Assembly (NCBI GenBank): GCA_028719205.1
Contig: JAQUKH010000001.1
Coordinates: 80,603-144,602 of the forward strand
From: a bacterium
GTDB lineage: Bacteria; JACRDZ01; JAQUKH01
DNA: 64,000 nt
Reading direction: 5' to 3'
Part shown: piece after piece, positions 1,046-48,301 of the stretch
Position numbering within the stretch: the first letter of the stretch is position 1
Layout: each line of letters opens with the position of its first letter
Program-made: the position numbers and the translations under genes
The notes under the pieces: generated by a model
What the model was told of the DNA's origin: nothing
Database searches by the model: none
What the model saw: only the letters and a program-made list of their open reading frames with translations

Positions 1046-2500
1046 CTACTCAAATTTCCATACTTGATCCGGGTGTTTGACCGCTTGACAAATTCTACCA
1101 CCATCATCTTTATTGCCGTTATAAACATCCAGATATAGCCCACTGATTCTTGATTGGATATAATAATATCCCGGATATTTTTCAGATGGTTCTAATCGCC
1201 ATACTTGATCTGGGTGTTTGACGGCTTGACAAATTCTACCACCAACATCTTTATTGCCGTTATAAACATCCAGGTATAGCCCACTGATTCTTGATTGGAT
1301 ATAATAATATCCCGGATATTTTTCAGATGGTTCTAATCGCCATACTTGATCTGGGTGTTTGACGGCTTGACAAATTTTACCACCAACCTCTTTATTTGCC
1401 TGATATACATCCAGATACAAACCACTGTTTTGTGATTGGATGTAATAACCACGATTCCCGCTTTCATCATTCGCGTTTCCGTTAAATGGATAATAGGCTA
1501 CTAATGCACTGTTGATATTTTCCCCTTGCGTTTCTCCTTGTGTAGGTTTTATAATATCAATTATTTTGGGCGGGACATGAGGTTTAGCTTCTATAACATC
1601 AGGTTTATCCGCCCGGGGTTTGTTTCCCATAGCATAAACCGAAGGCTGCACAAATACAAACTCGCCTCCCTCGGATCCCGGCAAATTGCCGAATTCAGGG
1701 ATTTGATCTGCCAGTTCAGCTACCTTTGGCTGTATATAGGTGTTTATTTCCGAAGCTGTAATAATACCATCGCCGTTATAGTCAGCCATACCTGTGATTA
1801 ACGCATCCAGAAAAGTTCCGGTGAAAGCGGAATGATTTTTATAACCGCCATCGCTTACAGGCTCCTTGCCGCCGGCAGTCAGGGCTTGCCTTGCTTTGCG
1901 TTTGGTTATTTCCTGCAAATATCGCGGATGATCATCTTTAACCGCCGCCGCACGCGTTGTAAAAAACATACCTGAATAACAGGCGTCCAGCACCATATAG
2001 ATATGTTTAGCCTTAATATCCTTTAAAATATCTTTCAGCTCTGTCATTGAAATCGCTGAAGCTCTGTATTCTCCCTGACGATAGTCCACCGGTATGAGAT
2101 AACCATTATCTTTGCTGCTTTCTCCATGGCCCGCGAAATAAATTAACAATCTATCTCTATCTCCTATTTTATCAGGCAAATCATCTCCTATCTTCTTCAA
2201 AATATCATTTTTTGTAGCTTTATTATCATATAGGGTAAAAATGTGATCTTCCACAAATCCATATTTATCCTGAAGCATTTGTTTTACCGCCTCAGCATCG
2301 CTAACCGCGAATTTAAGCTTCCCAACATTTTGATAATTATCAATTCCTATCACAACAGCCCAACTTTGCCCAAACGGTTCAAGCACTTCTCCGTCTTTGG
2401 CGACAATTTTGATACTGCGTAAACCATCATTAGCAAAATCCATAGTTGTAGTCATTAGGAATGCCAGTATAACTAAAATGACGATCAGTTTGGTTCGCAT
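1046..2500 (-). CDS. secreted peptidase C14 (caspase/orthocaspase) with C-terminal ricin-B-type beta-trefoil lectin (three QxW repeats)
   Basis: Signal peptide; His/Cys dyad motifs YFAGHG and LDACYSG; C-terminal 3x47-aa repeats containing Q-V-W. Confidence 0.85.
   Translation of the reverse strand: MRTKLIVILVILAFLMTTTMDFANDGLRSIKIVAKDGEVLEPFGQSWAVVIGIDNYQNVGKLKFAVSDAEAVKQMLQDKYGFVEDHIFTLYDNKATKNDILKKIGDDLPDKIGDRDRLLIYFAGHGESSKDNGYLIPVDYRQGEYRASAISMTELKDILKDIKAKHIYMVLDACYSGMFFTTRAAAVKDDHPRYLQEITKRKARQALTAGGKEPVSDGGYKNHSAFTGTFLDALITGMADYNGDGIITASEINTYIQPKVAELADQIPEFGNLPGSEGGEFVFVQPSVYAMGNKPRADKPDVIEAKPHVPPKIIDIIKPTQGETQGENINSALVAYYPFNGNANDESGNRGYYIQSQNSGLYLDVYQANKEVGGKICQAVKHPDQVWRLEPSEKYPGYYYIQSRISGLYLDVYNGNKDVGGRICQAVKHPDQVWRLEPSEKYPGYYYIQSRISGLYLDVYNGNKDDGGRICQAVKHPDQVWKFE
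1058..1480. repeat. three tandem 141-nt repeats encoding the three beta-trefoil subdomains (1058-1198, 1199-1339, 1340-1480). Copies 1 and 2 are nearly identical; copy 3 is diverged.
   Basis: Direct comparison of the nucleotide blocks starting ccatacttgatc... Confidence 0.85.
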
Positions 2501-2606
2501 AATTTATATTTCTCCCCCATTTTTATCAATCCGAACTCCCCTAATCCCCTATTTAAAAAAAGAGGGGAAAATAACAGTAAAATTATATTTATCTTTTCCC
2601 TCTTAC

Positions 2607-2632
2607 TCCTCCTCTTTTTTTAAAGAGGAGGA
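2607..2632. other. perfect 11-bp inverted repeat tcctcctcttt-tttt-aaagaggagga (GA/CT-rich hairpin) in the intergenic spacer. A second hairpin tcccct-N12-agggga lies about 60 nt upstream.
   Basis: Seen directly; no flanking U-run, so not a canonical intrinsic terminator. Confidence 0.4.
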
Positions 2633-2660
2633 TGGGAGGAGTTCTCTTAATGTTATTCTT

Positions 2661-2709
2661 TCAGCTTTTGAATGAATTTAGCTGATAGCTGAGTGCTGAA
2701 TTCTGACAA
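2661..2709. repeat. family-1 TCAGC-heptad element, right-arm-only (half) copy
   Basis: tcagcttttgaatgaatttagctgatagctgagtgctgaattctgacaa matches the right arms at 7001-7031 and 8307-8337. Confidence 0.6.
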
Positions 2710-2710
2710 C

Positions 2711-4477
2711 TTATTTATTATCCTTTCTCTCTTCTTTTTTGTTACCCTTATCTCCCTTAGTTTCCGTGCTGTCCCACACCTCCTCCGTCCCCGCGGATGG
2801 AATTGGTTTTGACATCGATTGGCCCTCCTCTTCAGTCAGCCCCCTTGAGCCTGTAAATCTATTTATGTCTTTTCCATAGATCTTAAATTCATAAATTGTT
2901 TCTGACCATATAGTTTTATCTAATTTTTCCCGTACTACGCCGATATTTTTTATACCTCTTGTATTTATCTCGTAGAACGGTTTTTTAAAATCCATTCCGA
3001 ATATATTTTCAATTGGGTCAGGTTTTATTGAAGCAATCGCTTTTACCCTTTCTATTCCGGCAGGCCCTTCTATTTTCATCTTAAATCCGTAATTATCACC
3101 CGGGATTCTGTAAGTCTGGCCTGCCCTGATAAAATTGTCCTGTGAAAATTGATTAGGGAAAAGAACATATGTTTCACCGCTTGTCGCTATATCAACTAAA
3201 GTCAGATAACAGTCACGGCTTGCTTTAAAATAGAAGTTTACATATTCATCTATTTTGTAACTTTCTTTATCAGTAGCGATATTAATATCAAACTCTTTTT
3301 TCTCTTGTTTTATTCCAATTATATTTTCTATACCTTTATTCTCTAAAAATACAAAATATTGCGCTTTCTTTACAACTTTCTCATCACTTAGCAACCCAAA
3401 TTCAACAGGGAAACTGCCTTCTTTATCAACAGGAATCCCCTGGCCGTCAAATTTTACTTTACCTGACATGTCAGTAAACTCATCTCTAACCCTTTTATCT
3501 AAATTGGGAAGAAACATAAAAACAGGCGAGTTTTTTATTGGAATATTTTTATCACCGGCCATATAACTAAATTCAATTTCAAACGGCTCCTTAATTTTTC
3601 CCCCGACTAAGATCTTCTGGTTATCGCCGGAAATTTTTTTCATTATGATCCCATTAAGTATTTTATCTTTTAAATGTTCAATGTCCTGCATCGATGGAAG
3701 ATTATTAGAATTATTATTTCCGGAAATTTGGGCTGATAAATATACTTTGTCAAATACGGTTTTCCTTTCTTCCGATAAATCCCAAAGTATTTTTAATGCT
3801 AAAACAACCTCCCCGTTTTTTTCATGCTCCAATGCTGTATTATAACCTTTTGTAATGCCTTCGATTTTTTCCTGCAGCAATTTGATCTCCATCTGTTCTT
3901 TTTTATTTTCTTCTTTTTCTTTATTTTCTGCGGCTTTATCTCTTCTTTTTTCCGCATATTCTCTTATACTTCTAATTTCTTCCTGAGGCACCGAAATTAA
4001 AAGCGCGGACACCCAATAAATTTTAGAGTTTTTATTTTCATAATATTTATATTTGCAATCATACCATTCTGATGGTTTTGTCCCGCGAATGAACGCTTCA
4101 GCAGCAGCACTGCTCGCATTTTTTCCAATTGACGCTATAGTTTCTTCATTATCTTTTCTGACTACTTTATTAATATATTCTTCTATAACTTCTATATTGA
4201 CTCCGCAATACTTAATAAATTCAATATCCGCGCCCCGCTTTGCTTCATCACGGGCAAATTTTCGCTCTTCTTTTTTTGATGACATACTGACAAAATACGC
4301 GTATTTTTCATCATGTTCAGGAGGTTTTATAAACCAGGCGGGCTGGATCGGGGAGGAAGATTCAAGTAATACCTCATTAACTTCCACAGTCTTTTGAGAT
4401 TCATCTCTAACTTGCATTCCTGTGCAGCTGCAAAACATAGAAATTACAATTATAATTATAAAATATTTTTTACCCAC
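2711..4477 (-). CDS. lipoprotein with N-terminal LPP20/FlgP-like domain and C-terminal DUF4384-like domain; K/E-rich tail
   Basis: Lipobox-like FCSC; PAWFIKPP...YAYFVS pattern of the LPP20 family; the C-terminal block YVNFYFKASRDCYLTLVDIATSGETYVLFPNQ...YRIPGDNYGFKMKIEGPAGIERVKAIAS resembles the caspase-associated DUF4384. Confidence 0.55.
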   Translation of the reverse strand: MGKKYFIIIIVISMFCSCTGMQVRDESQKTVEVNEVLLESSSPIQPAWFIKPPEHDEKYAYFVSMSSKKEERKFARDEAKRGADIEFIKYCGVNIEVIEEYINKVVRKDNEETIASIGKNASSAAAEAFIRGTKPSEWYDCKYKYYENKNSKIYWVSALLISVPQEEIRSIREYAEKRRDKAAENKEKEENKKEQMEIKLLQEKIEGITKGYNTALEHEKNGEVVLALKILWDLSEERKTVFDKVYLSAQISGNNNSNNLPSMQDIEHLKDKILNGIIMKKISGDNQKILVGGKIKEPFEIEFSYMAGDKNIPIKNSPVFMFLPNLDKRVRDEFTDMSGKVKFDGQGIPVDKEGSFPVEFGLLSDEKVVKKAQYFVFLENKGIENIIGIKQEKKEFDINIATDKESYKIDEYVNFYFKASRDCYLTLVDIATSGETYVLFPNQFSQDNFIRAGQTYRIPGDNYGFKMKIEGPAGIERVKAIASIKPDPIENIFGMDFKKPFYEINTRGIKNIGVVREKLDKTIWSETIYEFKIYGKDINRFTGSRGLTEEEGQSMSKPIPSAGTEEVWDSTETKGDKGNKKEERKDNK

Positions 4478-4497
4478 TATCCCCCCTATTTAAAAAA

Positions 4498-4921
4498 TAG
4501 CATTCAGCAATCAGCTGTCAGCATTCAGCTTTTTAATGAAAGACGTAATCATGCGCTTAATTTCTATTACCTTTTCAGTAAGACACTGGAAATCAGAATG
4601 GCTCAGCAACTCAAGATCATGAGTAAGCAGAAGATGATATTCTAACTCACATGCAGAACCCATCGCAATCTGAAAGAAACGCGATAACTCAGCTTCTCCC
4701 TTTCTTCCGCAGCCTTCTGCAATGTTAGCTGGAATAGAAGCACACGAACGCCGAATTTGGCTTGTCAGACCAAACAACTCATTTTTTGGAAAACTTGAAG
4801 TAGCTTTGTATACAGCCAAAGTTAATTCATGAGACTTCTCCCAAACTTTCAGTTCTCTAAAATTCTTCAATTGTATCGCTCCTTATTTTGCTGACAGCTG
4901 ATCGCTGAGTGCTGACAGCTC
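4498..4921. mobile_element. family-1 palindromic element carrying a gene. Left arm 4498-4529 and right arm 4890-4920 bracket the four-helix-bundle protein gene.
   Basis: The arms gcattcagcaatcagctgtcagcattcagc and gctgacagctgatcgctgagtgctgacagct are inverted TCAGC-heptad arrays as in the empty copies. The gene's last 7 codons lie inside the left arm. Confidence 0.4.
4511..4870 (-). CDS. four-helix-bundle protein (23S rRNA intervening-sequence protein family, PF05635/TIGR02436)
   Basis: ...LAVYKATSSFPKNELFGLTSQIRRSCASIPANIAEGCGRKGEAELSRFFQIAMGSACELEYHLLL... TTG start preceded by AAGGAG. Confidence 0.85.
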   Translation of the reverse strand: MKNFRELKVWEKSHELTLAVYKATSSFPKNELFGLTSQIRRSCASIPANIAEGCGRKGEAELSRFFQIAMGSACELEYHLLLTHDLELLSHSDFQCLTEKVIEIKRMITSFIKKLNADS

Positions 4922-6127
4922 TTATATGGCTTTATACGCTTCCTTCCTCTTCAGTATCCTTTGTAAATAATCTATTGTTTCCTGTTTTGGTAATTTTTTT
5001 ATTAACGTTTCATAGACAACTTTTGAAGTCATACTATTTATAATGGCATCTGCTTTTTTGATATCTTTCACGCCTGCAAATGTTTGCGCGAGATTTCCTA
5101 TCCCCGTATTATAAGCGGCAATAACGCAGTAAAGCCTGCTTTCTACATCTTTTATATTTTTGCAGTAACCATAAAATAATAATCCAAGATAAGCAGTTCC
5201 AATATTTATGTTGTTTTCATCATTATATAAATAAGAAGGGCTCAATAAATATGACTTCCCATATAAAATTTTCGTAACATCTTTACCGGCTGTTCCAGGG
5301 ACCACCTGCATAAGCCCATAGGCGGGAATCGGAGACTTTGCCATCGGATTAAAAGCGCTTTCTGTATGTATTACTGCCAATGCCAGAGACAGATCTAATT
5401 TATTTTTATCCGTGTATTTGCTGACTGACGCTTTATATTGTTTTGCTCTTTTAAGTAAACTATCAGATGGCAGGTCTATTTTTATGCTAATTACAATCGT
5501 TTTCTCAACTTTTGACGGCGCTTCCTGAATTTTAGCTTTTGCTACTATCTTTTTTACTTCTTTAGAAACTTCTTCTTTTTTAGGCGTGGGAGTATTAAAA
5601 AATACAGGCGCCAGGATCGGATCGCTTTTCACCTCATCTTTTTTTATATTCTTTACTTCTTTAATTACCTTTTTTTCTATGTTCTGTGAAAGCTTATCTT
5701 TTTCAAAGGCCGTTTTTTTGTCTTCAACCATTAAATCTTCCAGTGCCTTTTTAATTTTATTCTCTTTTTCCTCTTTTTTTTCATTCTGGCCTACGATTAT
5801 ATCTATTTTTATATTATTATTCTCAAAATCCACAATTTTTTTTGTTTGATAATCAGGAGAGTACTCAACCCATTTTTTATTATCAGAAATTTCAGGTTTA
5901 TCCCAGTTTGCTAATATCTCTTTTTTGTAATTCTCATATTCTTCTTCTACTATATTTTTATATTGTTCAAATTCTTTTTCTATTTCCGCTTGATATTCCT
6001 CAAATTCCTGCTGTTCCTGAGCAACTCCATTTTCCTGCTGTTTAACAAAGTCTTCAAAAGATTCAGCGGATACAAATGAAAAGTTAAAAAATATCATTAC
6101 ACCGGCCAAAACAATTACTTTTTTCAT
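4922..6127 (-). CDS. MltC-like membrane-bound lytic murein transglycosylase (SLT domain) with E/K-rich coiled N-terminal region
   Basis: HTESAFNPMAKSPIPAYGLMQVVPGTAG catalytic motif. Start chosen at ATG 6127 (MKKVIVLAGVMIFFNFSFVSA signal peptide, GGAAGGAA RBS). The longer ORF to 6160 would start with TTG inside the repeat. Confidence 0.75.
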   Translation of the reverse strand: MKKVIVLAGVMIFFNFSFVSAESFEDFVKQQENGVAQEQQEFEEYQAEIEKEFEQYKNIVEEEYENYKKEILANWDKPEISDNKKWVEYSPDYQTKKIVDFENNNIKIDIIVGQNEKKEEKENKIKKALEDLMVEDKKTAFEKDKLSQNIEKKVIKEVKNIKKDEVKSDPILAPVFFNTPTPKKEEVSKEVKKIVAKAKIQEAPSKVEKTIVISIKIDLPSDSLLKRAKQYKASVSKYTDKNKLDLSLALAVIHTESAFNPMAKSPIPAYGLMQVVPGTAGKDVTKILYGKSYLLSPSYLYNDENNINIGTAYLGLLFYGYCKNIKDVESRLYCVIAAYNTGIGNLAQTFAGVKDIKKADAIINSMTSKVVYETLIKKLPKQETIDYLQRILKRKEAYKAI

Positions 6128-6148
6128 TTTTTGTTTTTCCTTCCAATT

Positions 6149-6227
6149 AGCTATCAGCAATCAGCGCTCAGATATCAGCTAATTCAAATAAAAGCTGAAT
6201 GCTGACAGCTGATAGCTGAACGCTTAG
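6149..6227. repeat. family-1 TCAGC-heptad palindromic element (complete, empty)
   Basis: agctatcagcaatcagcgctcagatatcagct - aattcaaataaa - agctgaatgctgacagctgatagctgaacgct. Confidence 0.7.
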
Positions 6228-6898
6228 TATTTCTTAAACTTCTTGATAATCCAAATAACAACATATATTGCCACACAAAACCCTACAAAAAACGCAAGTA
6301 TAAGTTCATTGGTTCCTAAACTAAAACCGCTTTTTTCAGATATGGAAGATTCCGATAACGGTTCCACTTTTGCTTCAGATTTAGCTTCTTCCTTGACTTC
6401 TTCTTTTACCGCTTCTTTCACTTCTTCTTTTTGTATTTCTTTTGGTTTTTCTACTGCTATTTTTTCAACCTGTTTAATTTCAACTGTTTCAGCTTTTATA
6501 TCCGCTAAAATCAAATTTTCTTTTTTATTTTCAACCGCAGCCCCTTTACGAAGCTCTTCTAATTTATCTATTTCCTTATCTAGCTCATCCTGCCCATTTT
6601 TTGCTTTATTCTCCTGCCATAATGCTTCTTCGTTTATTTTTTTTTCTTTTTCGGGAGCAGCTTTTCCTTCGGTTTTAGCCTCATTTGAAATACTAATTGA
6701 TTTTTTGTCTTCTGAAATTTCTTTTTTAAACTTATTAAAATCCTCTAAATTTTCTTTCTTGTGCTCCTGAAAATCCTCTTTCATCTTTTGACTGGTTTCT
6801 CCCTCAAGCTCATTTTCAACGTCATCATATGTTTCAGCAAATAAAAACGTACTATTTAATAACATTATTATTCCGATAAAAATAAGTAATTTTTTCAT
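6224..6898 (-). CDS. secreted E/K-rich low-complexity protein with C-terminal transmembrane anchor
   Basis: Signal peptide MKKLLIFIGIIMLLNSTFLFA (ATG 6898, AAGGAG RBS); C-terminal LILAFFVGFCVAIYVVIWII; contains the ALWQENKAKNGQDELDKE motif shared with 7562..8164. Confidence 0.5.
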   Translation of the reverse strand: MKKLLIFIGIIMLLNSTFLFAETYDDVENELEGETSQKMKEDFQEHKKENLEDFNKFKKEISEDKKSISISNEAKTEGKAAPEKEKKINEEALWQENKAKNGQDELDKEIDKLEELRKGAAVENKKENLILADIKAETVEIKQVEKIAVEKPKEIQKEEVKEAVKEEVKEEAKSEAKVEPLSESSISEKSGFSLGTNELILAFFVGFCVAIYVVIWIIKKFKKY

Positions 6899-6924
6899 TC
6901 TATTATTTCTCCTTTGAAGTTTAA

Positions 6925-7031
6925 GCATTCAGCTCTCAGCTATCAGCACTCAGCTTTTTAATAGCATTCATCCATCTGCATTCAGTTTTTGAATGGATTT
7001 AGCTGATAGCTAGTAGCTGACCGCTGAACGC
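6925..7031. repeat. family-1 TCAGC-heptad palindromic element (complete, empty)
   Basis: gcattcagctctcagctatcagcactcagc ... agctgatagctagtagctgaccgctgaacgc. Confidence 0.7.
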
Positions 7032-7037
7032 TTCTTT

Positions 7038-7496
7038 TCATTGCAACACCATCCATACATGAATTTCCCCTGATTTTTCATCTTTCCAGATCTCTTCAAT
7101 ATTCGCTTTTACACTTTTACTATCAGACGTCTGAACGCTATAAGTACCCATATATGTCTTTGCGTCATTCTGTGTACCGGTTGTCGCGGTTACAAGATAA
7201 CTATTAACCTTTACCCCTAACTGCCTTGCTATATCATCCAAGGCCCTTTCTATAGCCAATTTTCTCTGTTCATTTTCACTTTTTATATGTATTCCGGATG
7301 TCCCAACACCGCCAATATTGCCTTTCATTCCCGGATTCCAATACCATTCCGGTTTACCATTTACTATTTTTGTCCCTTTTGATGTAACGTTCGTAATTAT
7401 TGATCCGCTATTATCCGCTTTTTTTACGCAGGATGACGCGGTAAACGCCAATATAACTACAGGTATTAGTAATAACCGGCTAAAAATATTTTTCAA
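7038..7496 (-). CDS. LPP20/FlgP-like lipoprotein
   Basis: Lipobox TASSC; PEWYWNP...GGVG...A..A..LA pattern. TTG start. Confidence 0.55.
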   Translation of the reverse strand: MKNIFSRLLLIPVVILAFTASSCVKKADNSGSIITNVTSKGTKIVNGKPEWYWNPGMKGNIGGVGTSGIHIKSENEQRKLAIERALDDIARQLGVKVNSYLVTATTGTQNDAKTYMGTYSVQTSDSKSVKANIEEIWKDEKSGEIHVWMVLQ

Positions 7497-7561
7497 ATTA
7501 ATACCCCCATTTTATTGGAGGAAAAGCATAAGATCTGCTTTCCCTCCAACTCTAATATTTA

Positions 7562-8164
7562 CTATTTTTTAGATTCAACTAATTTATTTACTTCTTTGTC
7601 CAGTTCATCCTGCCCATTTTTCGCTTTAAACTCCTGCCATAAAGCCTGTTCGTTCTTAAAACTGGTTTCAACCTGGTCTTTTATGGATTTCTTAGCTAAT
7701 TCATTATCAATAACAATCAAAACATATAAATTATCTTTTGGGGATGCCCAACTATCCCTAAGTGTTGTACCATTTAAAGTTTGGCTTGCAACTTGTTTTG
7801 ATACATCCGCTGATACCCTGTCAACCATTTCGCCATTACCAACCCCTGTAACATTCATAAAAGATTTAACCATATTTTTTACTTTTAACTCCATCATTCT
7901 GGCAAGTTCATTTCTTCCGTTGGCCAAAGCCTCTGTTCTTGCAAAGGACATACCGGCTTTACCTACTTTAGCAATACCAACTGCCGCGATCCCGCCTTCT
8001 ACCTGAGAGGTGGTTACCCATTTTGGAGCATCTTTAAATTCACTTTGTACAGTTGTATCCTGTTGAGTGTCTGTTTGCTTTGTTACGGCCTTAGTTGTTC
8101 CACAACCGGCAGAAAACACCACTGCAATAGCCAAAATACTTAACGAAATCATTTTCTTTTTCAT
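7562..8164 (-). CDS. LPP20/FlgP-like lipoprotein
   Basis: Lipobox FSAGC; APKWV...GGIAAVGIAKVG...ARTEALANGRNELA; strong AAGGAGGAT RBS. Confidence 0.65.
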   Translation of the reverse strand: MKKKMISLSILAIAVVFSAGCGTTKAVTKQTDTQQDTTVQSEFKDAPKWVTTSQVEGGIAAVGIAKVGKAGMSFARTEALANGRNELARMMELKVKNMVKSFMNVTGVGNGEMVDRVSADVSKQVASQTLNGTTLRDSWASPKDNLYVLIVIDNELAKKSIKDQVETSFKNEQALWQEFKAKNGQDELDKEVNKLVESKK

Positions 8165-8230
8165 TGTGTATCCTCCTTTTTATTTACATTGTGAATTTTT
8201 TTTTATTTAACTACAATGCTAGCTTATTAA

Positions 8231-8337
8231 GCAATCAGCAGTCAGCTTTCAGCTTTTTAATAGCTTTCTGCGTTCAGTTATCATTAGTCAGCTTTTGAAT
8301 AAAATTAGCTGATAGCTGAATGCTGAAATCTGATTGC
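8231..8337. repeat. family-1 TCAGC-heptad palindromic element (complete, empty), located in the 5' leader of 7562..8164
   Basis: gcaatcagcagtcagctttcagc ... agctgatagctgaatgctgaaatctgattgc. Confidence 0.7.
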
Positions 8338-8414
8338 TAAAGATTTAATCACCTCCCTGGCTTTAAGATGCTATTTTTTAGTAATAAACTTTTTTATATC
8401 TAACTCTAATATAA

Positions 8415-8431
8415 TGCAAGAACCATGCCAA
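8415..8431 (-). promoter_or_regulatory. sigma-54 (-24/-12) promoter. Minus-strand sense TTGGCATGGTTCTTGCA.
   Basis: TGGCAT-N5-TTGCA with correct spacing; 16/18 identical to the promoter at 16190-16206. Confidence 0.6.
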
Positions 8432-8576
8432 AAGTCGTTAAACAGTAAAAATAAATTCATTTTTATTAAAAAAACCCGATTTTTTCAGTCTTTTCCCCGT
8501 TTTTTTTAATCCAAATCCAAAATTACTAATATTAGCATATCAAAAACAGCCTGTTCCTATATCAAATAACGTATGG

Positions 8577-8591
8577 ATGCATGGAATTCCA
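8577..8591. promoter_or_regulatory. putative EBP enhancer (UAS) palindrome ATGCATGGAATTCCA, about 155 bp upstream of the sigma-54 promoter
   Basis: Same 15-mer as in the 16342-16359 palindrome, with the same spacing to the promoter. Confidence 0.45.
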
Positions 8592-8626
8592 CACAAGATA
8601 TGTTAAATGTTTTAGAATCTATCACC

Positions 8627-8670
8627 GTCAGCATTCAACTTTTGCATAAAATTAGCTGATAGCTGAAAGC
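8627..8670. repeat. family-1 element, half copy
   Basis: gtcagcattcaacttttgcataaaattagctgatagctgaaagc. Confidence 0.55.
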
Positions 8671-8673
8671 TCC

Positions 8674-10176
8674 TTATACAATATGCCCCCCTTTGTCAGG
8701 TTTATTAATATACTTTCGTCCTTTTGCCGTAATTTTGTACTTTTGGAGACGGCTGTTGGGCTTTTCCAGAATGGTTCTTTCAATAAGCCCTTCTGACAAA
8801 AGATCTTGAACCAACCGTTTAAGTGCCCCTGTAACTTGCTTCCTTCCAACTTGCACAGATATCTCAGACATAGAAAGCGGTTTATCCTTTAATGCTATTA
8901 TAACTGACTCGGCCCCTGACTCGGCCCCTGACTCGGCCCCTACAACCGGTTTTAATTTCACTAAAATTTTACGCCATACTGTTAAAATAAAGAACCCATT
9001 TTCTAAATGGAATTCCGGTGGTTTCATGCCTGCTTTTCGGCAATTATCAAACATATCAACAGTTCCGGTTCCAGCCTTTTCGATATATTTTGTCAGAAAA
9101 AGCGGTTCGGCAATCAGCGGATTTCCAGGGTGAGACGAATGAGGCATCGATAAACTCTCAATTGTCAGTGACGGCGGCAAAGTTCCAGGATTCCATACCT
9201 CAAGGCGATCTGCAAAAAGCATAATTTCAACGCTGGCATTGCTTATATAATCACGATGAGCTACTGCATTTACAATTCCCTCCGCGACCACTTCTTGCGG
9301 AATATCATATTCAACAGGAGCTTGCGGCCCTTGCGCCCGTGTTCCAACAAAACGGTTAAGTTTTGACATCACGAAATCAACCGACTGATCGACCATATCA
9401 AAAACCGTTCCCTTGTAAATTTGATATGATGGAATCGGCTTGAGTTTCTGTGTACCGTGAAAATGCATACATTTCACTTCGGAAGTAATCAGAAACCGCT
9501 GTGGTTTGACTCCAAATAATAAAATTGCCGCATGATTCGGTTTCCCTTTATCAAGCAGATCCAGATGGGTCAAAACATCAACAACAGGTGTTGTTTCTGC
9601 TAAAGCGTAATCACGGGCGTTGTGCGCGCGTGAAAGAAACCAGCGAATCTTATCGTCCGAAATATCGGCGACCTCCGCATTAAGACACATCGTCGCGTCA
9701 AATGGCCCGGTGTGGATCCGCCCGGAACCAAGAAGATAATGTACCAGGCTTGCGTAGACAGCTGAATGCAATTCTGGCAATGTATTAAAACGCCGTCGAA
9801 TCAACTGTGCTCCTGCTAAATTGATCAAAGAAATCATCTTTGGATGCCGGGATGCATCGCTATCGCCTTTGACAAAGATATAGCGAGGTTTACTACCCTG
9901 CGATGCCAAAAGAAATTCTTTATGCGTCGCGGACATTCCGTCGGAATCTTCAATGCCATACTTATTACCAAACAGGCCAATATAAATATCGCTCCGTTTA
10001 ACTTCTTCCAAGTACACCTCATCAGCACGGCGATCAGTAGCAGGAATATCCTCAAACAGAAACACATTAAAAAACCTGTTTAATAACGCGTCTCCCTGTA
10101 TATAATCTTTCAGAGCACGGCGTTCTTCGCTAAATTCTTTTTGAACACTGCTGATAAATATTTTATATTTTGTCAT
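8674..10176 (-). CDS. DUF4062-like N-terminal domain + AlbA_2 (Schlafen-like) + HATPase_c_4 + C-terminal winged HTH (RecG-like transcriptional regulator architecture, COG2865)
   Basis: KIFISSVQKEFSEERRALKDYI...SDIYIGLFGNKYG (DUF4062 pattern); ...NAVAHRDY...GTGTVDM... (HATPase_c_4); C-terminal wHTH. Confidence 0.55.
   Translation of the reverse strand: MTKYKIFISSVQKEFSEERRALKDYIQGDALLNRFFNVFLFEDIPATDRRADEVYLEEVKRSDIYIGLFGNKYGIEDSDGMSATHKEFLLASQGSKPRYIFVKGDSDASRHPKMISLINLAGAQLIRRRFNTLPELHSAVYASLVHYLLGSGRIHTGPFDATMCLNAEVADISDDKIRWFLSRAHNARDYALAETTPVVDVLTHLDLLDKGKPNHAAILLFGVKPQRFLITSEVKCMHFHGTQKLKPIPSYQIYKGTVFDMVDQSVDFVMSKLNRFVGTRAQGPQAPVEYDIPQEVVAEGIVNAVAHRDYISNASVEIMLFADRLEVWNPGTLPPSLTIESLSMPHSSHPGNPLIAEPLFLTKYIEKAGTGTVDMFDNCRKAGMKPPEFHLENGFFILTVWRKILVKLKPVVGAESGAESGAESVIIALKDKPLSMSEISVQVGRKQVTGALKRLVQDLLSEGLIERTILEKPNSRLQKYKITAKGRKYINKPDKGGHIV
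8906..8941. repeat. 3x12-nt perfect tandem repeat (gactcggcccct) encoding an (AESG)3 linker
   Basis: Seen directly. Confidence 0.9.
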
Positions 10177-10195
10177 TTTGTTTTGCTAATTTCTT

Positions 10196-12466
10196 TTATT
10201 TATATTCACTGCCACGAACAGGCCAAACAGAATAAAAATAGTTATCATTAAACAAACGAAGCTCTTGACCGTTAGAAAAATCAACAATTCGGCCATCAAT
10301 ATTTATCCAATAGCCCTGACTTTCAGGCACTAAATTAACAAAAGGATGTTGCTCTTGTTTATTATAAACAGTTTTCATTCTTATCAACTCTTTATATGTT
10401 GGCAATCTCCATCCAAAATATTTTTCATAATTTAAATTATTACATGCTAATTCAGCATTTTCCCAAATCACTTTGTTTTTTAAATAATTTGCGTCCTTTA
10501 ACCACAATAGTTTTGTAACATTATCATAAATAACACCATTCCCTAAATCTATGAATTTTGAAGGAAATAAAGCATATTTATTAATTAGTTTGGACCCAGT
10601 TAAATCCATAAATCTTGAAGAAAATTCATATTTTTTATTTAACGCATCATCAATAACATATGCTTCATTAATACTAAAATCTTTTGTCGTTGGAAAATTC
10701 ACTTTGATTTCAGCCCTTAGCAAATTATTTTCAAAATGCTGTTTCAACACTTTTGCCTCTTCTCTTGGAATTAGTATATTTTGTTTACATGTTACTTGAA
10801 TTCCTTTGATTGGTTGTTTTATTCTTATGGTAACGGGGTAAAAATTAAACTCGGAATTGTACTGTCGAAGTTCTAATATTAAATCATTGTATGTTAAAAC
10901 AAATTCATTTTCCGAAAGCTGTTTTAGCCTTTCAATAAATGGCGTGATTTGTTTATAATATTCAGATTCAATTTTACTCGATAATGCCTCAAATTCAGGC
11001 GTTTGCTCTTTATCTAAATTTTCTTTTTCCTTTAATATTTCAATTGACAATCTGTTCTTAAATTCAATTTCTGACTCAAACTCATCTTTATTAGAGTTTA
11101 ATATTTTCCCAAATTTCTCATTAATTCTTATACATATCTGGTTTATTCCATTAGTCAATTCTTTTCTATAATTTTTCTGAATGTCTTTTAATTGTGCGTC
11201 TATTTCCTCCATCTCGTTTATTGTAGCTTCAGGAGAAATTGATCTTAATGTTGCACCTTCCAGCGATTTCCTTTTACCTTCAACTTCCTGTTTAAGCATT
11301 GCTAATCTGGTTTCTTCTTCCTTCTTTTTTTGGATCAATTCATTTTCTTTTTTTAATCGTTCCTTTTCTTCGTCTTCCCTTTTTTTACGGTTTTCTTCCA
11401 ATGCATCTTGTTTTAATTGTTCCGCCCTTAATTTTGCTTCAATTTTTATTTTTTCGATCTCTGCCTGATATTTTGCACTTTCATCATTTGCCTTTAAAGC
11501 AGATTCTTCCAATAATTTTAACCGATCAAGTTCTTTTTGCAGGTTTACAACTTCCGCTTGATTATCTTCCAGTTTGCGTTCAATTGAAGGGATAAAAACA
11601 TAATCTCCTAATCCATATAACTCTCCATATTTTGGTGTTTGTATATGGTTTCTCGCGTTTGCGTCTGAGAATACTTTTTCTTTAAGCGCAGTGCTTATTT
11701 CAGTGGCTGTTATAAAATCATCTGTATTTTCCAGAAGTTCAATAAACCTGCCGGTAAAAACCGAATGGCCTTTAGGCCCGCCGTCTAATACCTGCTGGTC
11801 TTTATCCCCCGCGGTTAACACTTGTCTGACCCGCTCTTTAGAAATTTCTTTCAAATAGTTAAAATCCCTTGCTGTTTCTCTATTTGCCCCTCTTTTTGTT
11901 ACAAGAATTCCGCCATAGCACGCATCAACAATATAGAAAATATGTTTTGCCGGTATTCGTTTTGAAATATCATCTCTAATCATTGTCATAGAAAAATTTT
12001 TATATAATTCTTCTTTTTTGAATGTTCCGTCAAATGGTATAAGATAACCCAAATCCCCTTCCGCTGTTTTTTCCGTATATCCATGCCCTGCCCAGAAAAC
12101 AAAAATCGCGTCTTCTTCTGTAACCTGGCTAAGATTACCTAAAAGAATTTTAGTAATATTTTCTTTTGTAGCATCTTTATTGTATAAGGTAATGATCTTA
12201 TCAAATTTAAAATTCTTCCTGATAGCGTCTTCAACCCCTTTAGCGTCCTTTACCGCATAAGCCAATTGCATGTCATATGGCAAATTTTCATATTGGTCAA
12301 TTCCAATAATAACCGCGTAAGATTTGTTATATAACTTAAGTTCTTTTTTCTCTCCCGATGTTTTATCAACGGCAATGATTTTTATACCGCGGGTATCATT
12401 AATTGCGTATATTCCGCTTGATATAAAACAAGCAATAATTATTAAAAATAATAATTTTAATTTCAT
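10196..12466 (-). CDS. secreted peptidase C14 caspase-domain protein + long coiled coil + C-terminal DUF1566 (Lcl C-terminal-like) domain
   Basis: Signal peptide; FWAGHGY and VDACYGG dyad motifs; E/K/R-rich coiled coil; C-terminal WRLPTYKEL...WPVRG, characteristic of DUF1566. Confidence 0.8.
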   Translation of the reverse strand: MKLKLLFLIIIACFISSGIYAINDTRGIKIIAVDKTSGEKKELKLYNKSYAVIIGIDQYENLPYDMQLAYAVKDAKGVEDAIRKNFKFDKIITLYNKDATKENITKILLGNLSQVTEEDAIFVFWAGHGYTEKTAEGDLGYLIPFDGTFKKEELYKNFSMTMIRDDISKRIPAKHIFYIVDACYGGILVTKRGANRETARDFNYLKEISKERVRQVLTAGDKDQQVLDGGPKGHSVFTGRFIELLENTDDFITATEISTALKEKVFSDANARNHIQTPKYGELYGLGDYVFIPSIERKLEDNQAEVVNLQKELDRLKLLEESALKANDESAKYQAEIEKIKIEAKLRAEQLKQDALEENRKKREDEEKERLKKENELIQKKKEEETRLAMLKQEVEGKRKSLEGATLRSISPEATINEMEEIDAQLKDIQKNYRKELTNGINQICIRINEKFGKILNSNKDEFESEIEFKNRLSIEILKEKENLDKEQTPEFEALSSKIESEYYKQITPFIERLKQLSENEFVLTYNDLILELRQYNSEFNFYPVTIRIKQPIKGIQVTCKQNILIPREEAKVLKQHFENNLLRAEIKVNFPTTKDFSINEAYVIDDALNKKYEFSSRFMDLTGSKLINKYALFPSKFIDLGNGVIYDNVTKLLWLKDANYLKNKVIWENAELACNNLNYEKYFGWRLPTYKELIRMKTVYNKQEQHPFVNLVPESQGYWINIDGRIVDFSNGQELRLFNDNYFYSVWPVRGSEYK

Positions 12467-23141: not shown

Positions 23142-24142
23142 CCAACCCTTTCAATTTCTATTTCATGAAGTATTTCTTTTGTTGTTAAAGTGGCTGTCCC
23201 AACTTTTCCAATTACGATACTCGCGGCCAAATTTCCAATGTACGCTGATTCAAACGTACTGGCGCCTGATGCCAGCGATAAACTTAACGCGCTGATCACC
23301 GTGTCACCCGCGCCCGTTACATCAAATACTTCTTTTGCCATAGCAGGAATATGAAAATACTCCTTATCGTTACCGAAATAACTCATCCCATCTTCACCCT
23401 GCGTTATTAAAATACCTTTGCAATTCAACTCTGTAAGGAGTTTATTCGCGGCTAATTTTAGTGTTATTTTATCTACTATAGGGATACCCGCCGCGAAACC
23501 TGCTTCATGATGATTTGGTGTCAGGCAGGTTACTTCCTGATATGAATGGAAATGGTCGACCTGAGGGTCAACCAGAATATTTTTATTATGTTTTTTGCCC
23601 AAAGCTATTATATCTTTGATCAATTCAGGAGTAACGACTCCTTTCGCGTAATCAGAAATAATAATAATATCTATTGTTTTTACCGCGTTATTAATATAAA
23701 AAAGCAATTTATCCCTGATATTATCTTTAACTTTATCTTTTTTTTCTCTGTCTAAACGGACAACCTGTTGATTATGCGCGATAATTCTTGTTTTTAATGT
23801 TGTAGGCCTTTCATTATCTATTATTATGCCGTCAGTATTAATATCCTTTTTCCCCATTTCTGAAAAAACAGTTTTACCGATATCATCATTGCCAACCACT
23901 CCTGATAAATAAACTTTGCCTCCAAGGGCGTGTATATTATTGACTACATTTGTTGCCCCGCCTAAAGTATATGATTCCCTTGAAATATTTACGATCGGGA
24001 CAGGAGCTTCAGGAGAAATACGGTTCACGGATCCCCAAATATATTTATCTACCATAATATCACCAAAAACTAAAACTTTTTTACCGCTGAATGAATTTAG
24101 TATTTTTTTAATTCTCTCTGTATCTATTTTATTTTTATTCAT
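23129..24142 (-). CDS. hldA: D-glycero-beta-D-manno-heptose-7-phosphate kinase (PfkB family, RfaE domain I)
   Basis: PfkB sugar-kinase motifs; GAGD near C-terminus. Confidence 0.8.
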   Translation of the reverse strand: MNKNKIDTERIKKILNSFSGKKVLVFGDIMVDKYIWGSVNRISPEAPVPIVNISRESYTLGGATNVVNNIHALGGKVYLSGVVGNDDIGKTVFSEMGKKDINTDGIIIDNERPTTLKTRIIAHNQQVVRLDREKKDKVKDNIRDKLLFYINNAVKTIDIIIISDYAKGVVTPELIKDIIALGKKHNKNILVDPQVDHFHSYQEVTCLTPNHHEAGFAAGIPIVDKITLKLAANKLLTELNCKGILITQGEDGMSYFGNDKEYFHIPAMAKEVFDVTGAGDTVISALSLSLASGASTFESAYIGNLAASIVIGKVGTATLTTKEILHEIEIERVGWEK

Positions 24143-25092
24143 TTTTTTGCCTTTTTTAATTCAGATTTTATACTTGCCGCTAAAAGCGGAAGCATAAACT
24201 CATGATGGCCTGTAAAACTATATCCTTTTCCCCCGTTCATTGTCGGCCTTTCAATAATATTCTTATTTGGCCGGTAATGCTGGATCTGATCAAAATTAAC
24301 CGCTGTAAAATTTTCAACTTTATTATTAAGGTTTCTCGCGATCGTTAAAGCCTTCAGGAACACCTCTGGCAATATAACCGCTGAACCAAAATTACAAACT
24401 ACCCCGTTTTCCATATTTGAAACAATCCCGCAAAAAAGCTTAAAATCCAAAAAGCTACCTTGCCCAATTGCTTTTCCGTCAGCCTCAGGATGCTGATGAA
24501 TAATATCTGTGCCAATGGCGACATGAACAGTAACCGGAATATCTAATCGCTTACCCCAATACAAAATGCTGTTTTTACGATTTGGAAGTTTTATTTTTTC
24601 TATTTCACTGCCTAAAGAATATCCAATCCCGGAATTATTTTTATATCCATTATTAATCGCGGTATTCATCAGGTATCCGGTTTCTTCTACCATTCCGAAA
24701 CTCCCGTTTTTCAGATTTTCAGAAACATCCTCCGATGTACCCCCGCCAAAAGCAATCTCAAAATCATGGATACTGCCCGCGCCGTTTAAGGCTACCCCGC
24801 TTATAATACCATTCTTCATCAGATCTATGATTAATGGTGACAGCCCGCATTTTATTACGTGCCCTCCGAGAAGAAAAACAATTGTTTTCTTTTGTTTAAA
24901 TGCTTTCACAAAAGATTTTATCACTTCTCTAAAATTGTGTCCAGCGTGAATATCAGGCAATGAATTATAAAAGCTGTTAAATGACCCGTTATTAACAAAA
25001 GGTTTTGCAAAATTACTGTCTGAAACCAGATTTTTTCTTTCTTTTATTGAATATGTTTTTACTTTTTTTAAATCTACTGCCTTATATTTCAT
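24139..25092 (-). CDS. conserved hypothetical protein (Rossmann-like; family not confidently assigned)
   Basis: ORF with GGHVIKCGLSPLIIDL...NGAGSIHDFE; no confident family call. Confidence 0.4.
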   Translation of the reverse strand: MKYKAVDLKKVKTYSIKERKNLVSDSNFAKPFVNNGSFNSFYNSLPDIHAGHNFREVIKSFVKAFKQKKTIVFLLGGHVIKCGLSPLIIDLMKNGIISGVALNGAGSIHDFEIAFGGGTSEDVSENLKNGSFGMVEETGYLMNTAINNGYKNNSGIGYSLGSEIEKIKLPNRKNSILYWGKRLDIPVTVHVAIGTDIIHQHPEADGKAIGQGSFLDFKLFCGIVSNMENGVVCNFGSAVILPEVFLKALTIARNLNNKVENFTAVNFDQIQHYRPNKNIIERPTMNGGKGYSFTGHHEFMLPLLAASIKSELKKAKK

Positions 25093-25110
25093 CTATCTAT
25101 TCCCTTCCTT

Positions 25111-25144
25111 CCTTGCCCCATGCTCCATGCCCTATGCTCTTTGC
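25111..25144. repeat. family-2 heptad repeat
   Basis: ccttgccccatgctccatgccctatgctctttgc. Confidence 0.6.
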
Positions 25145-25148
25145 TTGT

Positions 25149-25901
25149 TTACTCCCCTTCAACATAATCGATCAAGGTTCCTGTTATATTTCCATACGTT
25201 GTGCTGCACTTGATAAAAACAGGTATTTTCCTGTCATCATCCGTAAACCAGATCCATAAATTAACCTTATTTTTTAAGTAGTTACGTTCCTTCTTCCCGA
25301 CTGATAAAGTTACAACATTTGTATTAAAATCGCCTACCGGTGTTTTTATCAATTCTTTTCTTATAACACTTACTTTTAGAATATCTACTTCTGTTCCAGA
25401 AAAATATTTTATTTCGATTATATCATTTAACTTAATATCTAAAGTACGAAAATATCCCAGAATAGAAAGAGGATCCTGAACACCTTTTGATATCTCATAA
25501 CGCTCTGATAGTGTATTTACAATTCCATTATTTTGATCAAATTCATAATCAGCTTTTTTATGGTACTTACCTTCATTTATATCTTTTTTATAAAGCATTG
25601 GTAAAAGAGTTTCAGTATCTATATATGTTTCCACCCGGTCTTTAACTGAAAAAATAGCATTAACTACCCCCTGGGTAAAAGTTTGTGAAACAACACGATA
25701 CGCGTTTTGTGACCGTATCTTTGTAATTTCGTCTAATTCAACAATATCAACTCCTATCCTGATACCATTCCATTTTATAGCGTAAATCATCCGCTCGCCG
25801 ACCTTATAATTATTTTTAGCGCAAACACATTCAGTTAATGTATTGTTCCCGATAAATAAATATAACGCTAAAATAATAATTATAGGATTTTTTAATGGCA
25901 T
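25149..25901 (-). CDS. secreted hypothetical protein (possibly DUF3108-like)
   Basis: Signal peptide; weak resemblance only. Confidence 0.4.
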   Translation of the reverse strand: MPLKNPIIIILALYLFIGNNTLTECVCAKNNYKVGERMIYAIKWNGIRIGVDIVELDEITKIRSQNAYRVVSQTFTQGVVNAIFSVKDRVETYIDTETLLPMLYKKDINEGKYHKKADYEFDQNNGIVNTLSERYEISKGVQDPLSILGYFRTLDIKLNDIIEIKYFSGTEVDILKVSVIRKELIKTPVGDFNTNVVTLSVGKKERNYLKNKVNLWIWFTDDDRKIPVFIKCSTTYGNITGTLIDYVEGE

Positions 25902-48258: not shown

Positions 48259-48301
48259 TTTGCCCTATGCGCCATGCTCCATGCACTATGCTTTACTCTT
48301 T
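48259..48301. repeat. family-2 heptad repeat overlapping the msbA stop codon
   Basis: ttgccctatgcgccatgctccatgcactatgctttactctttg. Confidence 0.6.

Follow-up and report, generated by a model that had tools for sequence, protein, structure and literature searches.

What places nearly the same short array in one intergenic spacer after another of a bacterial gene cluster? The window, by which we mean the whole 64,000-nt stretch analysed here (assembly GCA_028719205.1, contig JAQUKH010000001.1, positions 80,603 to 144,602), had been noted from its sequence to carry six palindromic elements within 6 kb, made of tandem heptads with the pentamer TCAGC and of the inverted array of these heptads. We consider it probable that the elements belong to a cassette in which the gene of a four-helix-bundle protein is enclosed by inverted heptad arms, that this design is common to the protein family, that the copies without an open reading frame (ORF) are derivatives of the cassette, and that the arrays are likely sites of its protein.

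The heptad motif TCAGCNNTCAGC was searched on both strands with at most one mismatch, and dinucleotide-preserving shuffles served as the null. There were 33 matches in the 64-kb window, compared with 1.73 ± 1.21 in the shuffles (maximum 6). Thirty of them lay within 2681–8666, and the remaining three were isolated, with one mismatch each. By this excess and clustering the TCAGC heptad family of the original prediction is real, and in-phase chains of two to four exact TCAGC pentamers were found where the elements had been placed. Furthermore, the 64 kb were scanned in a way blind to the heptad sequence, a strict period-7 array being defined by at least three exact units, and all arrays of this kind map to the TCAGC elements. 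The window holds one complete cassette (E2) and five ORF-less copies (E1, E3, E4, E5, and E6). Each of the six extends from the stop codon of the upstream gene to a few nucleotides short of the next Shine-Dalgarno sequence, so that they fill the intergenic spacers as had been claimed, and these extents hold after correction of the start codons of the SLT transglycosylase gene (ATG at 6127) and of a 234-aa gene (ATG at 6898). The complete cassette and its parts are as follows.

4497–4921, minus strand: complete cassette E2, in the order 5′ arm, Shine-Dalgarno sequence, four-helix-bundle ORF, 3′ arm
4890–4921, minus strand: 5′ arm of E2, GAGCTG TCAGCAC TCAGCGA TCAGCTG TCAGC, four exact units plus a degenerate outer unit
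4879–4884, minus strand: Shine-Dalgarno sequence AAGGAG, 8 nt before a TTG start codon
4511–4870, minus strand: four-helix-bundle ORF of 119 aa, PF05635 (23S_rRNA_IVP) / TIGR02436
4497–4529, minus strand: 3′ arm of E2, GCTGAAT GCTGACA GCTGATT GCTGAAT GCTAT

The neighbours of E2 are the SLT transglycosylase gene (stop codon 4922–4924) and the DUF4384 gene (GTG start at 4477). The 5′ arm starts 1 nt past the SLT stop codon, and the Shine-Dalgarno sequence of the DUF4384 gene follows about 9 nt past the 3′ arm. Viewed on the forward strand, the ORF stands between TCAGC ×4 at 4504–4529 and GCTGA ×4 at 4890–4915. In the paired-array test the arms gave four plus four exact in-phase units of period 7, which are mutual reverse complements, and in the predicted fold they pair as a stem of 20 + 4 bp (about 24 bp) that encloses the whole gene. 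The final six codons of the ORF (K-L-N-A-D-S) and its TGA stop are encoded within the 3′ heptad array itself. This layout shows a promoterless gene with its own Shine-Dalgarno sequence in an intercistronic spacer of the host operon.

The 119-aa protein matches PF05635 with 131.3 bits over residues 5–109 (cut-off 33.8) and TIGR02436 with 133.3 bits (cut-off 24), and it is the sole member of the PF05635 family in the window. Its relatives in the PDB are 2GSC, which is XCC0516 (E 1.3e-17), and 2RLD (E 6.5e-6), with five chains per entry. XCC0516 was described as a homopentameric toroid (PMC4990558). In addition, the window protein was compared with models of Avd, a protein of diversity-generating retroelements (DGRs), which it matches below their cut-offs (bAvd, 28.5 bits, E 2.3e-6, cut-off 40; DivGenRetAVD, 26.6 bits, E 5.6e-6, cut-off 80); by these profile scores the four-helix-bundle protein is distantly related to Avd. 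Avd is strongly basic, unlike the near-neutral window protein. Basic charge as a pointer to nucleic-acid binding was ruled out, the isoelectric point (pI) being 7.7. No reverse-transcriptase family was matched among the genes scanned at 1–12.5 kb of the window.

The ORF-less copies are 47–111 bp long and have the same TCAGC arms as E2.

2661–2707, minus strand: ORF-less copy E1, with the 5′ arm TCAGAAT TCAGCAC TCAGCTA TCAGCTA, the shared junction and the tail relic ATTCAAAAGCTGA
6147–6226, plus strand: ORF-less copy E3, in the orientation opposite to the host genes
6922–7032, minus strand: composite ORF-less copy E4, in which the 5′ arm and the junction are followed by the relic ATTCAAAAACTGA, some 20 nt, another relic GCTATTAAAAAGCTGA and a four-unit 3′ arm (folding z −7.2)
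8228–8338, minus strand: composite ORF-less copy E5, laid out as E4, upstream of the first LPP20-like gene (7562–8164)
8626–8672, minus strand: short ORF-less copy E6, in which a two-unit 5′ arm and the junction precede the degenerate relic ATGCAAAAGTTGA and a single GCTGA unit

E1 begins directly past the stop codon of the DUF4384 gene (2711) and E6 directly past that of the DUF4062 gene (8674–8676), and the terminal TAAGC unit of E3 provides the TAA stop of the 234-aa gene. The elements had been said to contain conserved cores. On the minus strand these read ATTAAAAAGCTGA and ATTCAAAAGCTGA, which are the final codons of the ORF (I-K/Q-K-L) entering the first unit of the 3′ arm. The minus strand has six occurrences of this motif, none of them outside the elements, and one is the genuine ORF end. 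The cores thus stand as a recurring motif but not as independent cores, since they are the reverse complements of the last codons of the ORF. Such tail relics are present in four of the five short elements (E1, E4, E5, and E6), which are colinear from the 5′ arm across the junction TCAGCTA-AnTyy to the relic, and the second relic of E4 and E5 is identical to the tail of the E2 ORF. E3 aligns with the other ORF-less copies solely as the plus strand, that is, as a module inverted relative to the host genes, and its 3′ arm equals that of E2 at 33 of 35 positions, variable spacers included. Because of the ORF-tail relics, the one shared junction and the two orientations, the alignment shows, at the sequence level, that the five short elements arose from an E2-type cassette by internal deletion and were copied in both orientations.

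Other parts of the original prediction are modified by this result. The two elements taken for half copies (2661–2709 and 8627–8670) are not halves, as on the sense strand they contain the 5′ arm, the shared junction and one to two units of the 3′ arm. The family of six copies was correct as a family, but not as a count, since E2 (4497–4921), with both arms and the ORF, was overlooked and is counted as a seventh element. Among the three explanations offered (mobile hairpins of the type of repetitive extragenic palindromic (REP) sequences or MITEs (miniature inverted-repeat transposable elements), RNA processing or stability elements, and protein-binding arrays), MITE-like mobile hairpins come nearest, in view of the ORF-less copies, the shared arms, the one junction and the two orientations, although the parent element and its gene had not been seen. 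The expected folding was found in the three long ORF-less copies, which form long imperfect hairpins on either strand (z −3.8 to −7.2), but not in the two short ones, where it was unremarkable (z −1.5 and −1.1). Exact palindromy was rejected as a description, because the variable spacers are barely complementary (0.61 vs 0.54) and the arms are inverted arrays of one pentamer. Intrinsic terminators and own promoters were sought at the elements, and nothing was found beyond the shuffle expectation; there is no T-run after any element, and the terminator scan gave merely two weak inner mini-hairpins. Rfam at the gathering threshold detected one tRNA in the whole window, no rRNA, and no family matching the elements.

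Comparison of orthologous loci, which had been suggested for detecting presence or absence of the copies, was possible with one distant relative. The sole orthologue found of the neighbouring DUF4384 gene is 37% identical and lies in locus L202 (GCA_964457585.1), where a heptad palindrome is present at the orthologous spacer after DUF4384. The palindrome after DUF4384 in both relatives reflects either a conserved function of this spacer or repeated insertion past stop codons.

The design of E2 is not peculiar to the window. Among the matches listed, 538 of 600 candidate stretches were confirmed, at least 80 metagenomic loci having relatives 59–78% identical to the window protein, and 83 cassettes from metagenomes, metagenome-assembled genomes (MAGs) and cyanobacterial plasmids were compared. 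Loci with full flanks had at least three in-phase TCAGC units upstream of the gene in 36 of 73 cases and at least three GCTGA units downstream in 48 of 73, whereas the background for such arrays was 8 of 1447 windows from the same contigs. Between the arms of the homologues the median number of Watson-Crick pairs is 27, and 60 of 72 lie above every shuffle. The arms mostly have four to five units, and the 3′ array begins at a fixed codon position. A detector blind to the sequence found in-phase inverted pairs of period 7 in 45 of the 83 cassettes, while the periods 5, 6, 8, and 9 gave 0, 0, 1, and 0, and control ORFs had period-7 inverted pairs in 1 of 428 cases. At least one period-7 array was present in 73 of 83 cassettes. 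The heptads of other lineages include TCGGC/GCCGA (a few copies on viral contigs), GGTTG/CAACC, AATC/GATT, and TCAGG/CCTGA, each as an inverted pair. Moreover, inverted heptad pairs were found at all nine cyanobacterial loci (eight plasmid copies and the chromosomal copy of Moorena), with AGGGAAC/CTGTTCC, TCAGGAG/CTCCTGn, ACAGGTG/CTGTCAC, AAAGGGA/CTTTTCC, GGGAAAA/TTTCCCn, AAGGCAG/TCTGCCn, and TTAGC/GCTAA. To judge from these comparisons, the gene between inverted period-7 arrays is shown to be a property of the whole family, the heptad being specific to the protein lineage. The conserved features are the 7-nt period, the four to five units and the inverted symmetry, and not TCAGC itself, because other lineages and the 23S rRNA intervening sequence (IVS) of Coxiella use other heptads.

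On the other side of this comparison stand arrays collected without regard to the gene. Scanning species-representative genomes for TCAGC ×4 gave 120 loci among the matches listed, from many phyla. A strict inverted partner was present in 27 of the 120 and a complete gene between the arms in 2, and therefore ORF-less arrays far outnumber cassettes; a single-sequence phmmer search over the 120 array loci found the gene in just 4. At five loci (L003, L026, L033, L034, and L039) the TCAGC arrays adjoin other heptads (GGTATCA/GGTCAGG, GAGCAAT, GCGTGAT, CATAATT, and GGTGTAG), which suggests that several cassette lineages left stacked relics in a single spacer. A separate observation concerns polarity. 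In lineages with G/C-skewed heptads (L211–L216, L218–L224, and L019), the sense strand has the G-rich heptad upstream of the ORF and the C-rich one downstream in every case (for example GGGAATC, AGGGAAC, TCAGGAG, AAAGGGA, GGGAAAA, ACAGGTG, AAGGCAG, and GTGGGTn). Several upstream arrays also double as Shine-Dalgarno-like sequences beside the start codon. From this polarity one may suspect a strand-specific (RNA-level) role, but the lineages in which it was seen are not independent.

The gene shows the marks of selection. The ratio of nonsynonymous to synonymous substitution rates (dN/dS) was 0.07–0.25 in eight moderately close pairs, and the identity at codon positions 1, 2, and 3 was 0.70, 0.81, and 0.38, respectively. 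These substitution patterns show purifying selection on the ORF, and by the same measure the protein is functional. At the same time the cassette changes its place. About 70 gene contexts were counted among the 88 cassette loci. The 120 best homologues in the database show 69–78% identity and come, by the names of their sources, from Actinobacteria, Deltaproteobacteria, Binatia, Methylomirabilia, and Moorena, a cultured cyanobacterium, whereas the orthologue of the neighbouring DUF4384 gene reaches just 37%. At one site (L145 vs L162/L180) the host flanks are 90–98% identical, while the cassettes are 50–80% identical and have different heptads, and L162 retains the GCTGA arm of the other lineage downstream of its own arm. 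The old arm left behind and the near-identical flanks thus point to cassette replacement or nested insertion. Concerted evolution of the arms was considered at this site and rejected, as the alignment showed a replacement that left the old arm. The spacer between pheS and pheT was found in three states: empty (L083), with the hairpin only (L082, filled by TCAGC ×4, about 3 nt and GCTGA ×4), and with a full cassette (L188/L189). Locus L170 (1231–2260, equal to L172) has an intact gene followed by three tandem 5′-truncated fragments (profile positions 66–118, 73–118, and 66–118), each of which ends in its own GCTGA 3′ arm. With respect to the upstream neighbour, the cassettes are co-oriented in 51 cases and opposed in 15, which fits a promoterless cassette. 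Phage carriage was rejected as the main vehicle, since 2.9 million viral contigs gave six confirmed matches, all of them at a single site and bearing TCGGC arms. The distribution of related cassettes shows that the family moves between genomes, sites and phyla.

Two plasmids of cyanobacteria provide a further placement. In Pseudanabaena galeata (L210, 1501–1860) and Anabaena sp. 90 (L214, 1495–1863), the cassette stands in a type I-D CRISPR-Cas operon, with cas6 on one side and cas4 on the other, and carries heptad arrays of up to about 17 units. A paper on CRISPR clustering includes '23S rRNA IVP' among the CRISPR-linked domains. The cas6–cas4 placement may be a simple insertion of the cassette into cas operons.

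Heptamer arrays are known from other bacteria, among them the STRR (short tandemly repeated repetitive) arrays of cyanobacteria. In Xanthomonas campestris ATCC 33913, 186 GGGAATC heptamer sites are dispersed genome-wide; they mostly have four units, form 70 convergent inverted pairs, lie mostly between co-oriented genes and have an unexplained function, and they were stated by the authors to be unassociated with mobile elements (Rehm et al., PMC4692102). Furthermore, 83% of the Xanthomonas arrays keep their gene context between two species (PMC4692102). Geobacter metallireducens has paired arrays of four to five hepta- or octanucleotide repeats on opposite strands in operon spacers, called 'binding sites of unidentified global regulators' (PMC2700814). 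Heptamers were also described in Nostoc (GGGGAYT arrays, PMC4692102; bioRxiv 10.1101/2022.06.06.494920) and, as the intergenic TAACTGA, in Beggiatoaceae (PMC4679880). The authors of the Geobacter and Nostoc studies independently proposed a protein that binds the paired or tandem heptamer arrays (PMC2700814; bioRxiv 10.1101/2022.06.06.494920). Heptanucleotide tandem repeats were reported as the most over-represented among long-unit simple repeats in prokaryotes, and slippage was proposed as the cause. In the literature searched, no link between heptad arrays and PF05635 was found outside the Coxiella IVS.

The structure 2GSC connects these arrays with the cassette, as XCC0516 comes from X. campestris ATCC 33913. 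Since the gene is in the strain with the GGGAATC arrays, the model predicted inverted GGGAATC flanks on both of its sides. The Xanthomonas loci examined come from assemblies other than ATCC 33913, and in X. campestris, X. arboricola, and X. sacchari the XCC0516-type gene was found between accB and accC. Its upstream array is CGGGAAT CGGGAGT GGAGAAT CGGGAAT CGG (GGGAATn ×4), and its downstream array is CCCATTC CCCATTC TCGACTC CCTATTC CC, that is, nATTCCC ×4, the inverted complement. The prediction of inverted GGGAATC arrays around the XCC0516-type gene held. The best 120 XCC0516-type homologues are from Xanthomonas and genera of the Xanthomonadales (Stenotrophomonas, Pseudoxanthomonas, Lysobacter, Luteimonas, and others), and the loci examined are those of Xanthomonas. 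Some annotations start the N-terminus of the XCC0516-type protein inside the 5′ heptad array. By comparing resident and dispersed arrays, two genomes, that of the window and that of Xanthomonas, show dispersed ORF-less arrays which evidently use the heptad of the resident cassette.

We hypothesize that the arrays serve in cis as sites for the four-helix-bundle protein which the cassette itself encodes. The arguments for this are that each lineage has its own heptad, which moves together with the gene, and that four to five units match a pentameric ring, in the manner of TRAP and its GAG repeats. TRAP is a homo-oligomeric ring whose target consists of short GAG motifs with two to three free bases between them, the number of units being near the number of subunits. 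Moreover, a conserved pentamer with a nearly free 2-nt spacer fits repeated recognition better than it fits a simple stem. Each subunit of the pentameric ring would read one 7-nt unit, namely five specific bases and two of spacer. The arrays would give the element an identity for its propagation or maintenance, and the protein could act in trans on ORF-less arrays. When the cassette is co-transcribed with the host operon, the paired arms may form a long imperfect stem of 5-bp helices, and RNase III, by analogy with the rRNA IVS, might cut this stem and so separate or destabilise the flanking cistrons. As the function of the arms, an RNA processing or stability element and a protein-binding array are both plausible by comparison with these systems. 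A wider proposal is that PF05635 pentamers in general are the partners of bacterial heptamer repeats, with heptads coevolved in each lineage, and form a mobile, self-marking regulon that seeds ORF-less arrays in operon spacers; we put it forward tentatively, as possible rather than probable.

Several observations weigh against the cassette with protein-read arms. Just 45 of the 83 cassettes passed the strict pair test, and 93 of the 120 TCAGC loci listed are without a strict inverted partner, some of them being coding or long pure tandem arrays. The complementarity of the spacers from arm to arm (0.61) is close to that by chance (0.54), and the mismatches of the arms, scored blind to their type, were 70 G·U vs 80 A·C. 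Because there is no excess of G·U and the spacers are nearly free, selection for the RNA stem as such is not demonstrated; as a candidate, RNA-level selection on the stem was set aside as unsupported, G·U not exceeding A·C. No target-site duplication was found among 39 cassettes, in which the longest adjacent direct repeat was 2.67 compared with 2.51 ± 0.12 in the null. The 119-aa ORF matches no transposase family, neither a transposase nor a reverse transcriptase is recognisable in the cassette, and the window protein, at pI 7.7, is near neutral. The accB–accC location is fixed across Xanthomonas (L218–L224, gene at 1501–1830/1890) and looks domesticated rather than like that of an active selfish element. 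Finally, the match between heptad and protein lineage could be plain co-inheritance instead of recognition.

In another explanation the four-helix-bundle protein is a global DNA or RNA regulator of the host. The arrays would then be selected operators, those flanking the gene itself would be autoregulatory, and the short elements would be functional. A heptamer-array-binding protein was indeed proposed independently by the Geobacter and Nostoc authors, and a host regulon would also account for the 83% of Xanthomonas arrays in a gene context conserved between two species, the XCC0516-type gene fixed in accB–accC across related genera, the strong purifying selection on the ORF, and the heptad palindrome at the DUF4384 spacer of the 37%-identical relative. 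However, the relics in four of five short elements and the one junction in both orientations indicate descent, not evolution in place, and near-identical proteins in unrelated phyla, about 70 contexts, replacement, and tandem truncated copies are the behaviour of a mobile element. We regard a purely host-selected regulon as unlikely, and it does not exclude the cassette, since a domesticated mobile regulon is possible.

The mode of copying could be that of a non-autonomous retroelement. The 3′ heptad array of the cassette RNA would anneal in any register to a DNA array, a reverse transcriptase would act in trans with the Avd-like protein as cofactor, as in DGRs, and incomplete copying would leave 5′-truncated copies. 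Such a route keeps a minority place because truncations retain the 3′ end and its arm throughout (L170/L172, and E1, E4, E5, and E6 of the window) and new copies land beside or inside older arrays. The distant homology to Avd (bAvd E 2.3e-6, DivGenRetAVD E 5.6e-6), the absent target-site duplication, and the varying unit number with occasional expansion to 9–17 units also agree with it. Yet a reverse transcriptase was not seen beside any cassette examined, the Avd-model scores are far under the cut-offs (28.5 vs 40; 26.6 vs 80), the 5′ arm is as regular as the 3′ arm although 3′-primed copying would not create it, and deletion between repeats could equally yield the truncations, so we hold this route to be quite improbable. 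It is very improbable indeed that the elements are ordinary REP/MITE hairpins moved by an unrelated transposase (such as RAYT or an IS200-like one) or made by polymerase slippage, with a gene in one of them by chance. They are REP-like in being intergenic, palindromic, multicopy and between co-oriented genes, and the over-representation of heptameric repeats in prokaryotes was attributed to slippage. But the gene is associated with the arrays far above chance and across lineages with unrelated heptads, the period 7 is exclusive, slippage does not predict a conserved pentamer with a free 2-nt spacer, and the ends of the elements do not have the GTAG or CGTC head published for REPs (PMC3733652), by which the earlier REP reading falls as well. 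The cassette whose protein probably recognises its own arms remains the reading that we follow.

A second type of heptad is present elsewhere in the window. The claim that no such elements occur in its core genome holds for TCAGC arrays but not for heptads generally, as nGCATrG ×4 was found at about 25.1 and at 48.27 kb (25107–25140 and 48262–48292, minus-strand sense, e.g., AGCATAG GGCATGG AGCATGG GGCAAGG). The array at about 25.1 kb fills a 56-nt spacer between the co-oriented genes 25149–25901 and 24139–25092, and that at 48.27 kb begins at the TAA stop of the gene 48293–50014. Both are unpaired, having no inverted partner, and no corresponding cassette was seen in the window.

The genes around the TCAGC elements form a cluster of their own. 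It is conserved between 1046–12466 of the window and 10001–13472 of L202, which belongs to a MAG of 29% GC (GCA_964457585.1), in the order of a DUF4384 lipoprotein and then a caspase-like Peptidase_C14 protein. The window cluster also holds the SLT transglycosylase, two LPP20-like lipoproteins, and another caspase protein, whose C-terminal domain is Lcl, and the whole looks like an envelope-associated system. Two other tandem repeats lie within its coding sequences. At 8904–8941, in the 3′ part of the DUF4062/HATPase_c_4 gene (8674–10176, minus strand), the perfect 12-nt repeat CTGACTCGGCCC is present in 3.2 copies and gives a short peptide repeat. At 1058–1448, a 141-nt repeat of 2.8 copies with 92% matches lies in the caspase/ricin-lectin gene (1046–2500), where the ricin-type lectin domains map.

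The interest of E2 is that it would be an element of the IVS type which resides in mRNA operons and has ORF-less derivatives, by which the rRNA IVS is reframed as a special case of an intercistronic cassette. A structurally solved protein family is nominated as the partner of the so far unexplained heptamer repeats of bacteria. In this way three separately described puzzles are tied together, namely the over-represented heptanucleotide repeats, the dispersed inverted arrays, and the large four-helix-bundle/S23 family with structures but no known function, since inverted period-7 arrays bracket the gene in each of the lineages examined. If true, this would unify the 23S rRNA IVS, the GGGAATC sites of Xanthomonas, the 'global regulator sites' of Geobacter, heptamers of the STRR type and the prokaryotic over-representation of heptanucleotides, and it would mean that a helical-bundle ring recognises nucleic acids sequence-specifically in a new way. 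The cassette insertions in accB–accC, pheS–pheT, and cas6–cas4 are currently annotated as ordinary hypothetical genes. The role of the family is testable in cultured organisms, that is, in X. campestris, for which there is a crystal structure, in Nostoc punctiforme, and in Moorena.

Among known systems, the 23S rRNA IVS is the nearest to E2. That of Coxiella carries in its 5′ arm GACAGAT ×3 and a degenerate fourth unit, and RNase III cuts at the first of the repeats (PMC4990558). An IVS with an S23p ORF is also present in Leptospira, Brucella, and Xanthomonas (as cited in PMC4990558), and such sequences were long ago proposed to be mobile or selfish (PMC4990558). E2 and the IVS share the protein family and an ORF enclosed by complementary arms which form a long stem. 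They differ in that E2 lies between protein genes of an operon (SLT and DUF4384) and not in an rRNA helix, the window being without rRNA. Purifying selection acts on the ORF of the E2 type, and its Shine-Dalgarno sequence is a good one; the Coxiella IVS ORF, in contrast, is decaying and probably untranslated. ORF-less copies accompany E2, unlike the IVS. MITEs have autonomous partners, as exemplified by the Correia/NEMIS (Neisseria miniature insertion sequence) and ERIC (enterobacterial repetitive intergenic consensus) elements. The TCAGC elements are MITE-like in that short multicopy members share inverted arms with a longer ORF-bearing element, occur in both orientations, form hairpins and are intergenic. 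Unlike in MITEs, there is no target-site duplication, the ORF of the partner encodes a 119-aa helical bundle and not a transposase, and the arms are tandem 7-nt arrays. For REPs, PMC3733652 gives a palindrome of 20–40 bp with a GTAG or CGTC head, while the present elements are 47–111 bp long, built of heptads, and end in (T/A)AGC...GCT(T/A).

The proteins can be compared in the same way. With TRAP the family would have in common, by analogy, relatives of five chains, arms of four to five units, and a conserved pentamer with two free bases; there is no homology between them, and the heptad arrays, unlike the TRAP target, come as inverted pairs. With Avd it shares distant homology and the same pentameric four-helix-bundle architecture, but the cassette has neither a reverse transcriptase nor template and variable repeats beside it, the model cut-offs are not reached, and the protein lacks a basic charge. 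The published heptamer arrays of Xanthomonas, Nostoc, Geobacter, and Beggiatoaceae resemble those of the window in having about four to five units of 7 nt, often in convergent pairs, in spacers of co-oriented genes, and with a species-specific unit. The papers on these arrays draw no link to PF05635, whereas the present analysis makes it directly, in the case of Xanthomonas by a prediction that was borne out.

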